The position numbers were made by a program, and so were the translations under genes. Shown here piece after piece: positions 2,903-61,095 of a DNA stretch of 64,000 nucleotides. The notes below the pieces were generated by a model. It did not search any database. It was not told the DNA's origin and saw only the letters and a list, made by a program, of their open reading frames with translations. This DNA is from Octopus vulgaris (Eukaryota). The DNA is taken from the NCBI GenBank assembly GCA_951406725.2, contig OX597829.1, positions 9,796,001 to 9,860,000 on the forward strand, in the 5' to 3' direction. Numbering within the stretch: the first letter of the stretch is position 1; every line of letters begins with the position of its first letter.

Positions 2903-3242
2903 AACACCTTTTATCAATTCAAAATGAACAATTAAATTACACCATCTAGAAAATTACATATAATAGAAATATTAAAATTAAAATAACAATAAAATGTTAA
3001 TGTTTAAGTAAACTGCAAAAAATAATAATAATAACGTATATAATTTTATTGTTATTTTAATTTTAATATTTCTATTATAAGTAATTTTCTGGATGGTGTA
3101 ATTTAATTGTTCATTTTGAATTGATAAAAGGTGTTTTTTTTCTAATTTTTTATATATATTATATTGTGTGAAATTTGATTTAGTATTTCTAAATTGAATT
3201 TTTTTCCTTGTAAGTTTGAATTTTATTCCCTCAAATAATAAT
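2903..3242 (+). mobile_element. AT-rich foldback insert: 93-bp arms plus tail, no hammerhead retained
   Basis: 2903-2995 vs 3043-3135 inverted. Tail ctaaattgaatttttttccttgtaagtttgaattttattccct resembles tail ctaaatctgatttttccctgtaaatttggatttattccct at ~56038-56077. (TA)n flanks. Confidence 0.65.
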
Positions 3243-3322
3243 ATATATATATATATATATATATATATATATATATATATATATATATATATATATATAT
3301 ATATATATATGTATATATAGTT

Positions 3323-3738
3323 GCAGGAGTGGCTGTGTGGTAAGACAAACACATGGTTCCGAGTTCAGTCCCGCTGCGTGGTCCTTTTGGAAAGTGTGTT
3401 CTACCATAGCCTCGAGCCAATCAAAACCTTGTGAGTGGATTTGGTAGACAGAAACTGAAAGAAGCCCGTCGTGTATACATATATATATGTATGTATGCAT
3501 GTATGTATGTATGTATGTATGTATGTATGTATGTATGTATGTATGTATGTCTATATGTATGTATGTATTTGTGTGTCTGAGTTTGTACCCCCACGCTATC
3601 GCTTGACAACCAATGCTGGTGTGTTTACAACTCCGTAAGTTAGCGGACTAGGTTTACAATGAATAAGTCCTGGGGTCGATTTGTTCGACTAAAAGGAGAA
3701 GCTCCAGAATGGCTGTAGTCCAATGACTGAAACAAGTG
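3323..3738 (+). mobile_element. tRNA-derived SINE family 1, near full length with internal microsatellite
   Basis: Pol III A/B-box-like head; body ggatttggtagac.gaaactgaaagaagcccgtcg; 3' part ggggtcgatttgttcgactaaa. Confidence 0.8.
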
Positions 3739-4761
3739 AATATATAAATAGGTGTACAAAGTAATGAAAATAGAGCTGAGCACACGTTGGAGTAAGGGAT
3801 ATCTCTTTGCATATTGATTCAGCCTTACATTACTCAGAGTTTTGTAGGCCAATGTCTACTTTGTGAATCATACCTTAAACTATATATACATCTATATACC
3901 GTTGTGTGTGTGTGATCGTATATACGCGTTCGTGTGTGTGACAGTGTATACGTACATAAGTACCCCTTATACATATAAGTGGGATTTTTTTTAGTCAGGA
4001 AGTATAAGGCGGCGGGTTTGGTGTTGGTGTTAGAGGTGTTGTTGATTATAGAAGGTAGGTCACTAGGTGAGTAAATATACATAAAAATAAGAGCTACGTT
4101 CTTGTTTTTATGTATATAAGAAATTGCGTGCATATAAATATATATATATATATATATATATATATATATATATATATGTATGCATGTATGTATATATATA
4201 TATGTATGCATGTATGTATATATATATATATATATATATATATATACACATATATGTATGTATATGTAACTATATGTATGTATATATATATATATGTGTG
4301 TGTGGGTTTGTGTGTATATGAGAGAATGTATGTATGTATATATACTCACACACAAACATATACACACGCGCACACACATTCAAGTCAAGTCGTGGTAGAC
4401 AACTTAGATTCCTGCCCGACAGAAATAGGAGTATTACAGGTATTTTCATAGGCGAAGTAACCATTGGGAAGGTGGTTTTATTGGCTGTGCTGGTTGTTTA
4501 TGTTGTGACGTGGATGCGTGGGTGGCCATATATGGGTTACAAAATAAAGAAAAGATGAAGGCAGAGTACATAATTGGATTAGTAGATTTTATTAACATCC
4601 TAGTCTAATTTTCTGGCTGCCTATCTGTCTGTCAATCTGTCTACTACCTATCTATTTCTCTGTCTGTCTGTCTGTCTCTCTCTCGCTATATATATATACA
4701 TATATATATATATATATATATATATATATATATATATATATATATATATATACATATATAT

Positions 4762-4970
4762 GTAGTTAATCCAAACATGAAAATACAAAGAGAAAACACA
4801 ACAATGCGAGGAGGTGGAACAAGTATAGTATTATTGGACGCTCCGGAAAGAAGGAAAGAAGGAGAGTTTAACTTTTCGAGCGGAGCTCTTCGTCAGAAAC
4901 GTAGGAAAAGGAAAGATCCAAAGAAGGGAAGACGGAGGGAAAAAAATCACCAACGGTACACACGTGGTCA
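4762..4970 (-). mobile_element. (TA)n-embedded pLTR-like insert carrying a hammerhead
   Basis: ~210-bp unique segment between TA tracts. A related, more truncated piece lies at ~30366-30450 (gtattagtataacgctcaggaa vs gtattattggacgctccggaa). Confidence 0.6.
4866..4900 (-). ncRNA. Minimal hammerhead ribozyme fold (extra A after core, stem III mutated)
   Basis: Minus strand: GUUU-CUGACGA-A-GAGC[UCC]GCUC-GAAA-AG-UU|AAAC. Confidence 0.65.
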
Positions 4971-5295
4971 TATATATATATATATATATATATATATATA
5001 TATATATAAATTCATGTATATATATATATATATACTTATATTTATATACATACATATATACACACACACACGCACACACACACACACACACACACACACA
5101 CACACACATATATATATATATATATATATACACACACACACACACATATACATATGTTTGTGTTTGTCTATCTATCAATCAATCTATGTATCTATCTGAT
5201 TGACTGTCTGTTTGTCAGTCTGTGTGTCTTTCTACCTATTTGTATTTCTATGTACCTATTTCTCTGTCTACTTAAACACATAAATATATATAAGT

Positions 5296-5439
5296 GCAGG
5301 TGTGGCTGTGTGGTAAGAAGCTTGCTTCCTAACCACATGGTTCCAGGTTCAGTCCCACTGCGTGGCACCTACTATACCCTGAAGTCGAGCTAAGCATTGT
5401 CAGTGGATTTGGTAGACGGAAAGTGAAAGAAGCCCGTCG
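5296..5439 (+). mobile_element. tRNA-derived SINE family 1, 5' half
   Basis: Same head and body as 3323-3471. Confidence 0.8.
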
Positions 5440-58508: not shown

Positions 58509-59036
58509 TTATTATTATTATTATTATTATTATTATTTAAAATTCGCAGTTGGTTTTGTATCGGGTATTTTATCCGTTATATGTTTATTAGTATTTTGCT
58601 CTCAGACGTTGCACTTGTGACAATAACATAGACTATTACTATTATTTTTACTATTAGTATTATTATTGTTATTATTATTATTATTATTATTATTATTATT
58701 GTTATTATTATTATTATTATTATTATTATTATTATTATTATTATTATTATTATTATTATTATTATTATTATTATTATTATTATTATTATTACTATTACTA
58801 TTATTATTGTTATTATCATTATTATTATCATCATCATCATCATCATCATCATCATCATTATTTTTTTATATTTTAGTTTGTTCTCTGAGGTTTTAAAAAT
58901 TCATTTGTTCAAACAGTTTGAATACATATAATGTAATTTTTTGAATGCTACAGATGTATTTAAGAGACTAAAAGAATTTTAGGCATTAAAAATAGTTCAT
59001 CATAATTTTGCATTTAATATTATTATTATTATTATT

Positions 59037-59524
59037 GAGTGAGAGCGCAGTTCATGCCATCAAAGTGACACTGGGGTAAAATATACGAAGTCCAATATAC
59101 CCATCATGACTACCCGTCTGATAAAGGTACACCAGGCACATGCATCACAACCATATGTGCGCGACATGGTGATCTCATATCAAGATAAACAGCACATGAC
59201 CTTGCAGGTGGGGCCCAGTTAGAATTTTCTTCAGGTTGAGTAGCCCATCCCGCTCAAACGGTCCCTGAATAAGGGTTGTTTAAGGATGTTGAAAGAACCA
59301 CCCATGTTTCCAGAGGTGAACTATTCAAACCCCAAAGAATCCCTCTCAACACATGGCTATGATGCTCCCCCACTACTTCTGCTCATGATCAGAGATGCAC
59401 ATATCGTCAGCCACTAAGGGACATGCTCAACTGGTTAAGGTCAAACAACTGACAAGCAAATCTGTGGTATTGAGCAGAATATTTGCTGTAGCCCATCTTT
59501 TATACCAAGACAAAACAATGTACA
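59037..59524 (-). mobile_element. (TAA)n-tailed non-coding retroposon, copy 2
   Basis: Colinear with 57996-58485; (ATT)n flanks. Confidence 0.8.
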
Positions 59525-59649
59525 TTATTATTATTATTATTATTATTATTATTATTATTATTATTATTATTATTATTATTATTATTATTATTATTATTAT
59601 TATTATTATTATTATTATTATCATTATTATTATTATTATTATTATTATT

Positions 59650-60345
59650 TTTTTTTTTTTTCTTCTTTCAAATTTGCTTCCATTTCTTGCCGAGTGTCTT
59701 CCCGACTCCTAGGGCAAAGAAACTCATAGTATACATTGGTAGGCCATTAAACCAAACTCAGTAGTTCGTTCATTTTTTTTTTCTTTTTAAGTTAAATTAA
59801 GATACATGAGCAGCAACAGTTCTCACATCGAAAATGCTCTTCTCAATACGTGTGATGTACCAGTTAAGACAATCTTTTGCACTTCTTGCAGGGATGGTAA
59901 GCCAGGGATCATTCTCATATAATTTTCGGTTCCCTTCTTGATCATTCCTAGTGCTCCTACGATCACCGCCTTGAGATGCCACATTTTCTCAATTTCAATG
60001 AGTAGGTCTTAATATTTTCTGAGCTTGTCAAACTCTTTCACCGAGATATTATGATCATAGGGAATGCTCATGTCGATCAATAAGCAAACTTTATTGTTTT
60101 GGTCTTTCACAACAATATCTGGTTTATTGGCCTTGATGGTTCGGTCTGTATGTACTGGAAAGTCCCACAGAATGGTTACATTTTCTCCTTCAGTTACAGC
60201 CTCAGGGTGGTGATTATACCACTTGTCGGCAGTTTTGATATTGTAATGCCGACTTTTTAGCCATTGTAGATATTGGCCAACTCTGTCATGTCTTAATTTA
60301 TACTCCACTGGTGCTAAGACTTTACATCCAGAGATTAGGTGGTCC
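59650..60345 (-). mobile_element. 5'-truncated RLE-type non-LTR retrotransposon (R4/Dong-like) in (TAA)n
   Basis: DHLISGC..RHDRV..NKPDIVVKD..LLIDMSIP: end of CCHC knuckle, RHD motif and PD-(D/E) endonuclease. Internal disruption, 3' UTR, A-run, (ATT)n on both sides. Confidence 0.85.
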
Positions 60346-60576
60346 TTATTATTATTATTATTATTATTATTATTATTATTATTATTATTATTATTATTAT
60401 TATTATTATTATTACACCGATGATATTACACCCATCGTAGAGTTTTCTCTGAAGAGAGAAAATTTTGCGCAGTAAAATTTCTATAACACATTATCGCATG
60501 ACTATATTTCGGAATATAATTTATTGTGTATATATATATATATATATATATATATATATATATATATATATATATA

Positions 60577-61095
60577 TAATATAAGCGGGATCAGCCATCT
60601 GAATGTGGCTAGGGACAGGGCGGGGTGGTGGGGGTGTTACTGATGCATTTAGCCCCAGGCGACTATCGACGTCACCAGAAGAGCCGACACCATCACGGTG
60701 TCCTTGCTAGCCTGCAAAGGGAGATCAGCCTCACCGAAGATACGGATTTTCTACGCCAGTGACTGTGGTTACTGTGAAAATCTATATATATCTGGCCTGT
60801 ACAAGAAGTTCCTCAGCGAAGAACGGTGCTTGCCATGCGCTGACAAGAGGCAAATACCTCGAAACCGGTCCGTGTGTAGCATCCGTATCTTCGGTGAGGC
60901 TGATCTCCCTTGCAGGCTAGCAAGGACACCGTGATGGTGTCGGCTCTTCTGGTGACGTCGATAGTCGCCTGGGGCTAAATGCATCAGTAACACCCCCACC
61001 ACCCCGCCCTGTCCCTAGCCACATTCAGATGGCTGATCCCGCTTATATTACAGAGCAGTTACTGTTTATACCTCGCTCAGAGATTCATTATTGTT
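60577..61095 (+). mobile_element. Penelope-like non-coding foldback insert in (TA)n: ~170-bp arms, 133-bp spacer with hammerhead, ~45-bp tail
   Basis: 60577-60747 vs 60881-61050 inverted with one 1-nt indel. Absent from the paralogous (TA)n tract at ~51150-51200. Confidence 0.85.
60834..60876 (+). ncRNA. Hammerhead ribozyme fold with G8-to-A core variant
   Basis: CAUGCG-CUGACAA-GAGG[CAAAUA]CCUC-GAAA-CCGG-UC|CGUGUG; palindromic ACCGGU stem III, GUC site. The core reads CUGACAA rather than CUGANGA. Confidence 0.75.

Follow-up and report, generated by a model that had tools for sequence, protein, structure and literature searches.

Hammerhead-bearing foldback inserts in an Octopus vulgaris genomic window and how inverted Penelope-like insertions may be made

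The window analysed here, a 64-kb stretch (64,000 nucleotides) of the Octopus vulgaris contig OX597829.1 (assembly GCA_951406725.2, positions 9,796,001 to 9,860,000), carries six foldback inserts and one single-armed insert standing in or beside TA microsatellites. All seven had been predicted from the letters of the window, and all were confirmed at their positions, the six foldbacks with simple repeats masked beforehand (Table 1). Judged by their sequence, they appear to be 5'-truncated 3' ends of Penelope-like elements (PLEs) or of hammerhead-bearing passengers of such elements. The inserts are real, were correctly read and belong to a known class, and their value lies in a copy-level test of mechanism and in the untranslated regions (UTRs) of related elements, which carry the insertion target. 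The one-tail pattern of their arms likely shows how inverted PLE insertions are made.

According to the original prediction, the inserts share one design, consisting of (TA)n, an inverted arm, an optional spacer, a second arm, an unpaired tail and (TA)n. This holds overall, except that the unpaired spacer is no separate part and represents the 5' extension of the longer arm, that insert 2 lies in (GATA)n adjoining TA, and that the left flank of insert 4 holds only about five TA units. Searches of the genome (2.8 Gb in 227 contigs) with inserts 1, 2, 4, 5, 6 and 7 returned 1085-4582 candidates each; 40 candidates per search were scored and 25-30 retrieved. The query with insert 3 gave no match, even to insert 3 itself, an outcome that common-word filtering can produce, and its family was gathered through other loci. 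Natural reference copies were then mapped onto the loci, with 11 overlapping loci and family 7 left out. In every family the 3' ends fall at two fixed points that lie 43-118 nt from each other. Among 157 two-armed inserts with both flanks, 133 join a tailed to a tail-less arm, two join two tailed arms, none joins two tail-less arms and 22 have an eroded end, and the one-tail rule is thus followed by 133 of the 135 scorable inserts. It is also followed by all 39 scorable inserts (among 44) of PLE-B, an autonomous family whose loci were chosen by protein and thereby blind to the tail, about half of the regions being taken for their opposite-strand pairs. The longer arm is the tail-less one in 39 of the 133, the tailed one in 69 and neither in 25 (PLE-B: 14 tail-less vs 23 tailed), with offsets of up to about 2 kb across families.

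The centre and the ends of the inserts are informative as well. Where the arms meet, the junction overlap averaged 2.03 nt against 0.74 nt under a blunt-join null (p 6e-10; 59 junctions, none with inserted bases and none from families 3 or 5), a figure that BLAST ends may inflate; an exact recount in PLE-B gave 2.46 against 0.73 nt (p 4e-5) for the 13 of 46 junctions with overlap or a blunt join. The arms of an insert diverge by 0.2-4.6%, and variants are shared within inserts far more than between them in all seven families tested: the share of variant sites common to both arms, compared with that between inserts, was 28% vs 0% in PLE-B, 54% vs 3% in PLE-A, 58% vs 13% in family 6, 58% vs 10% in family 2, 55% vs 6% in family 4, 25% vs 0% in family 5 and 18% vs 7% in family 1. 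In addition, a patch of three to seven alternating T and A bases occurs at 13 of 13 start sites with known downstream context (background 7.5%). The target itself can be seen next to insert 6, since a copy of its flanks 9.4 kb upstream holds a single TA run of 47 nt in the place that is taken up, at the filled site, by 50 nt of TA, insert 6 and 21 nt of TA. Whether a duplication or a second haplotype, this empty copy shows the pre-insertion site.

Table 1. Inserts and related features of the 64-kb window (positions in the window; candidates from the genome search with each insert)
Feature	Positions	Strand	Parts	Hammerhead and tail	Candidates
Insert 1	2903..3242	+	tail-less arm 2905-3045 (-), tailed arm 3043-3241 (+)	family tail 82 nt, related to tail of insert 5	1085
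Insert 7	4762..4970	-	single tailed arm	hammerhead 4866-4900	4582
Insert 2	20941..21529	-	tailed arm 21386-20941 (-), tail-less arm 21384-21529 (+)	hammerhead 21248-21308 in tailed arm; tail 118 nt	1563
PLE-C tail-end remnant	21654..21678	-	25 nt, between two TA runs		
Insert 3	28745..28940	+	tail-less arm 28745-28808 (-), tailed arm 28805-28940 (+)	hammerhead 28805-28855; tail 69 nt	
Insert 4	29597..30243	.	long tail-less arm 30019-29597 (-), short tailed arm 30021-30243 (+)	hammerhead 29779-29863, in long tail-less arm	1980
Tail end of a further hammerhead-bearing family	30366..30449	-	beside TA run		
Empty-site copy of insert 6 flanks	51031..51998	+	97-98% identical to 60414-61919		
Insert 5	55513..56090	+	247-nt arms, 99% complementary	hammerhead 55869-55911 (+) plus its mirror; 80-nt tail 56010-56089	1639
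Insert 6	60575..61095	+	tail-less arm 60575-60747 (-), tailed arm 60742-61095 (+); junction overlap 6 nt	hammerhead 60834-60876, G8A core; tail 45 nt	2171

We consider it probable that a foldback forms when both nicked strands of (TA)n prime on one RNA at two fixed sites and the ends of the complementary DNA (cDNA) are joined. Both strands of (TA)n present the same 3' end, and each could prime at a different site of the one RNA: one protein subunit would start at the inner site and the other at the outer site, displacing the first cDNA, the TA patches at the start sites may pair with the nicked target end, and host microhomology-mediated end joining may close the centre of the insert. The product expected of such priming is TA, a tail-less arm, a tailed arm and TA, with either arm longer and with variants common to the arms. 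This is the pattern seen, and the observations thus fit two-site priming on one RNA. Twin priming is known from LINE-1, where one RNA serves both target strands as template and the junctions have microhomology, and the 3' end is not duplicated in LINE-1 inversions; here, by contrast, each arm starts at a fixed site close to the 3' end, and the two arms share sequence. PMC11167929 describes a PLE protein that in vitro nicks both strands and extends them from two internal start sites bounding the tail, and that was predicted and modelled as a dimer. Our literature search found no twin-priming model for PLE inversions, the one published model found for the head-to-head form being self-priming (PMC3846280). 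We lean, with less assurance, towards a fuller scheme as well, in which a dimer on one RNA would prime both (TA)n strands at two TA-patched sites, would thereby give nearly every foldback exactly one tail and would move retrozymes in trans. Some autonomous families, with kilobases of TA/TG repeat in their 3' UTRs, would spread their target sites and add to the microsatellite load of the host. The proteins mobilising the passengers would be of Hydra or Neptune type.

Twin priming might also proceed on two RNAs, one per subunit, with the arms made alike later by gene conversion or alike from the outset through a single source locus. We regard this as unlikely. It would account for the many variant sites found in only one arm (31 of 43 in PLE-B) and for chimeric head-to-head inserts, in which a family-6 or family-1 arm is joined to the inverted end of another hammerhead element (L003:452-1100 and L164:1240-1450, family orientation). 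However, free RNAs give no reason why inner and outer starts should be paired in 133 of 135 inserts, and passengers moved in trans should often pair across families, whereas in most inserts the two arms are of one family and have private variants in common. A little less likely again is self-priming, or snap-back, by which the inverted arm is copied from a strand folded onto itself, either an antisense RNA (the proposal of PMC3846280 for head-to-head palindromes) or the first cDNA. Variants common to the arms agree with it, and so do the 25 of 133 inserts with equal arms, several of which, in families 3 and 5, have a palindrome at their centre. A copy made by folding back cannot reach beyond its template, however, and the unpaired part should then keep to one arm type; it occurs on either type in the counts given above, and window insert 4 has its longer arm tail-less, which contradicts self-priming as a general route. 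It may still explain the equal-armed minority.

The inserts could instead be miniature inverted-repeat or foldback DNA transposons inserting at TA, as their long inverted repeats, their TA flanks and the non-coding nature of the window copies would suggest. We hold this to be very improbable, given the fixed 3' ends with variable 5' truncation, the one-sided tail, the tandem units and the hammerheads; terminal inverted repeats that are symmetric and fixed at both ends, as expected of such transposons, were not found among the insert copies, and for insert 3 the direct continuity with a reverse transcriptase (RT)/GIY-YIG frame refutes such an origin. Least credible of all is that sequencing or assembly produced the palindromes as artefacts next to microsatellites. 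No short-read contig spans the whole of insert 6, as an artefact would have it, but the arms differ from each other and end at family-fixed sites, and 12 further family-6 foldback joints were found in short-read contigs of run X16 at depths of 11-46.

Several points weigh against two-site priming on one RNA as we propose it. The loci for family comparisons are best matches and no random draw, and the queries for families 1, 2, 5 and 6 contained the tail, so that tail-less pairs are under-sampled in these four families, two-tailed pairs being unaffected. Inserted bases occur at 50 of the 133 junctions, some of them copied from nearby; in the exact recount of PLE-B, 15 of 46 junctions were unresolved and 18 had a gap; and families 1, 3 and PLE-A, with 3-4 junctions each, had no excess microhomology. 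The shared variants could be due to gene conversion between the two arms, or one locus could have supplied two RNAs, and the chimeric inserts L003 and L164 join different families, which means that two RNAs can be used. In the PLE PAc, start site and target are described in PMC11167929 as being without homology. Family 7 is single-armed in 25 of 30 chains, and its four two-armed calls rest on CA-repeat matches. No open reading frame (ORF) was reached upstream of families 1, 5 and 7, where only long low-complexity sequence was found, and none of the passengers could be linked to a protein in this analysis. Lastly, the mechanism is read from genomic copies of these elements.

As for the hammerheads, a strict descriptor gave three matches in the window against 0.01 expected from 100 local dinucleotide shuffles, and a relaxed one gave seven matches in six inserts, insert 5 being hit twice. 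The five inserts originally credited with a full hammerhead do have one, and insert 3 has to be added to them, its hammerhead also being complete with a stem I of 6 bp, a stem III of 4 bp and a loop of 8 nt. Only insert 1 of the seven is without a hammerhead; it is cut short below its family's motif, which is itself degenerate. Palindromic or near-palindromic stem III sequences had been quoted for five inserts and are present as quoted, and the AAGU of insert 7 is a mutated form of ACGU, which is kept in 28 of 31 family arms. A type-I hammerhead with a short or palindromic stem III in the pseudo-long terminal repeat (pLTR) is present in the tested families. Across family arms the cores are conserved while position 7 (N7) is free, and stem I covaries, its changes compensating each other in family 4 (12 vs 10 arms) and in part in family 2; these counts are of arms and not of independent inserts. 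In family 6 the core is canonical in 34 of 54 arms and G8A in 19, and the window copy has G8A. This change breaks the C3-G8 pair, and the insert 6 hammerhead is therefore likely impaired, as judged from the mutants G8C and C3G of PMC11167929. The PLE-A hammerhead is the published U3-A8 variant, and the core of PLE-B is U4C.

Predicted folds of monomers showed no exceptional stability (z +0.2 to -1.6) and left stem III unformed, and a Rfam scan of the window gave no hammerhead among the best 150 of 485 matches, nearly all of which were microRNA models on microsatellites. Cleavage by the hammerhead as the origin of the 5' ends was rejected, with 7 of 240 junction ends falling within -3..+8 of the cleavage site against 6.3 expected; an apparent cluster of family-5 ends near the cleavage site is accounted for by microhomology with the partner end. 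The hammerhead is read through in 103 of 108 PLE-B pieces, in agreement with the in vitro results of PMC11167929. It probably acts at another step, such as multimer processing and perhaps the making of circles, and is unneeded for insertion. Folding of the tails gave no structure common between families. By eye, the tails of several families share a motif near the outer end.

The original prediction left the choice between a PLE pLTR and a retrozyme-like origin, and both are present. Families 2, 4 and 6 consist of tandemly repeated units that measure 551, 574 and 360 nt and carry a single hammerhead each, and no match to PLE proteins was found for them; the open frames of 130-200 codons in family 2 had no PLE protein match either. 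An arm that extends past the unit start usually enters the end of another unit, and up to four or five units lie within a single arm in family 6. Inserts 2, 4 and 6 would thus fit the definition of non-LTR retrozymes, namely ORF-less tandem units with one hammerhead each. A joint from unit to unit found in runs X1 and X2, whose RNA origin is a guess, exists in DNA too, and A-to-G differences in short-read contigs were indistinguishable from alleles. Words of family 6 occur under five organism codes (runs X9-X11, X15 and X17-X20; runs X1, X2, X15 and X16 were examined); no RNA run is listed among those with such words, which speaks neither for nor against expression. PLE-C, another autonomous family, was considered as the parent of family 6 on the hint of one locus, L008, and was rejected, as family 6 matched only that locus among 30 PLE-C loci. 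At L008:543-1400 a family-6 arm ending at the inner site abuts PLE-C endonuclease and UTR sequence, a joint that probably arose when the arm was inserted into a PLE-C copy or when the template was switched.

Most copies of family 5 begin at one fixed 5' point, and a minority of longer ones continue into about 1.9 kb of TG/TA-rich UTR sequence; two family-5 matches lie 5086 bp apart in the same direction. Long copies of family 7 have at least 1.4 kb of CA-rich sequence upstream. At L136:1100-2200 (family orientation) there is a tail-to-tail pair of family 7, with several hundred bases of host flank duplicated and inverted.

Endonuclease-like frames flanking the family loci led to three autonomous families, PLE-A, PLE-B and PLE-C. 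PLE-A is Neptune-like, has an RVT_1 match and gave 26,839 candidates in a protein search that counts related families in; its ends matched none of the seven window inserts. Several copies (L243-L251) have two overlapping frames of 495 and 811 amino acids (aa), which is unusual for a single-ORF class. PLE-B is a 2.6-kb element with an open frame of 717 codons, and all 150 scored matches were 100% identical over 151 aa in a search that likewise counts related families in, so that on its sequence it is likely active now. Several full-length frames are found in the PLE-B burst (L206-L255, L366-L405). PLE-C has a single RT/GIY-YIG frame of 722 aa with 107 homologues, three of them with RVT_1, and its endonuclease region aligns with those of PLE-A and PLE-B. 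Pfam alone gave no RT match for PLE-B and PLE-C and only sub-threshold GIY-YIG matches, to PLE-A and PLE-B fragments, and a PDB sequence search with PLE-C returned 0 matches. Intact inserts of PLE-A and PLE-B have the same foldback design as the window at kilobase scale, with TA on both sides in 38 of 39 scorable PLE-B foldbacks, and the PLE hallmarks of a tandem or partly tandem pLTR, an inverted 5'-truncated copy and a one-sided tail are present.

The sequence of insert 3 stands at the ends of PLE-C, the family end being found in 15 of 16 fetched regions, and directly precedes the 722-aa frame in a tandem (L348). Insert 3 is therefore the pLTR end of an autonomous Hydra-type element, PLE-C. 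The claim that no coding remnant is visible stands for the window, where tblastn found no PLE coding sequence, and is qualified by this family, which is joined to an RT/endonuclease frame elsewhere. PLE-C is about 5 kb long because of its TA/TG microsatellite-like 3' UTR of about 3 kb, which in one copy holds 16 runs of (TA)5 or more, so that the element spreads its own target, and other elements were found inserted into this UTR. Kilobase-long microsatellite-like UTRs rich in TA/TG or CA were seen to be copied along with their elements at L346 (PLE-C 3' UTR), L406 and L286:8300-9950. Moreover, a small family-4-like element lies within the UTR of a PLE-C subfamily and is co-carried in several copies (L277, L280-L283, L285 and L346).

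The novelty of the inserts had been overstated, as the foldback design, including the inverted arm, tail, TA target and palindromic stem III, is already published, and the architecture is that of a standard PLE insertion (PMC8557442 and PMC3846280). PMC8557442 describes for PLEs the inverted arm, a tail of 30-40 bp and TA targeting, and calls their formation unresolved. Minimal hammerheads, the U3-A8 variant, and Schistosoma hammerhead pairs on opposite strands 100-700 bp apart are found in PMC4209133. Closest to PLE-B and PLE-C are the Hydra-clade PLEs of PMC8557442, which likewise have a single frame of about 700 aa with RW(K/R), DKT and linker and cysteine motifs and no CCHH; RWK, DKT, a CxCx5C linker, CxxC and CxH, without CCHH, all occur in PLE-B, and RWR replaces RWK in PLE-C. 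These PLEs also share with the elements here the hammerhead, (TA)n insertion, the inverted 5'-truncated arm and the tail. They are generally shorter than 3 kb, as is PLE-B, in contrast to PLE-C; their tails measure 30-40 nt compared with 67-69 nt here, where PLE-B also has its U4C core; and few families are described in that source outside cnidarians, whereas thousands of candidates per family were found here. PLE-A resembles Neptune-clade PLEs in its RVT_1, CX4CxxC linker, cysteines inside the endonuclease, TA targeting and foldback, and differs from them in having two frames in the copies examined.

The Poseidon PLE PAc of Anolis (PMC11167929) has, like the elements here, two start sites bounding the tail, an AT-rich target, extension of both strands and uncleaved RNA as the main template. 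Its start site is the point of difference, since a TA patch matching the target is found throughout the start sites here. The one-tail rule and the junction analysis were not found in the main text of that paper, whose supplements may contain the pattern. Metazoan non-LTR retrozymes, for which a PLE origin has been proposed, are also tandem non-coding units of a few hundred nucleotides with one type-I hammerhead each, those of a mussel measuring about 350-390 bp (PMC7229834; bioRxiv 10.64898/2026.07.22.740005). The units here differ in being dispersed in (TA)n with two fixed ends and an inverted arm. That retrozyme-like units carry the PLE insertion signature supports mobilisation in trans, and such dispersed units would amount to direct genomic evidence of PLE-type mobilisation. 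In an octopus, 31 recently active PLE families were reported in PMC13282606, the available portion of which mentions neither hammerheads nor a TA bias. We found no literature on cephalopod hammerheads describing the present families, which the supplements of PMC8557442 and PMC11167929 may hold.

The formation of tandem and inverted structures and the bias towards microsatellites are named in PMC8557442 as open questions of PLE biology. Young, near-identical copies such as those of PLE-B provide clean junctions that discriminate between models, and PLE-B and PLE-C offer natural pairs of protein and RNA for an in vitro test. If the proposed priming is true, the genome records an unresolved step of Penelope transposition.

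A density of about one insert per 10 kb had been claimed, which is too high: under a strict rule, the 64-kb window has three foldbacks with TA and tail, compared with 12 in a sample of 580 kb elsewhere (58 evenly chosen stretches, two of them adjoining the window), the window being about twice as rich as the sample. In the same 580 kb, 16 canonical-core hammerhead motifs were found against 0 in shuffles, or 39 against 2.0 with variants, which corresponds to about 28 canonical cores per Mb. Were they transcribed, hammerheads at this density and foldbacks every 25-50 kb or so would supply long double-stranded RNA in large amounts.

Besides the inserts, the window holds a decayed family-5-like arm end adjoining a TA run (19610-19663) and inverted repeats without the TA/tail design at 8745-8952, 17887-19209, 23833-24169 and 29165-29476, which are probably remnants of DNA transposons. 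A short interspersed nuclear element beside insert 1 is presumably of an octopus type. A host zinc-finger gene with an open frame of 2522 codons lies at 31366-33018 and 35025-42593 (+) and is, as we assume from its look, MECOM/PRDM16/Hamlet-like; inserts 3 and 4 stand 1-2.6 kb upstream of its first frame. Finally, C-terminal fragments of non-LTR retrotransposons, which we take to be restriction-endonuclease-like, are present at 60009-60425 (-) and 63247-63789 (-).

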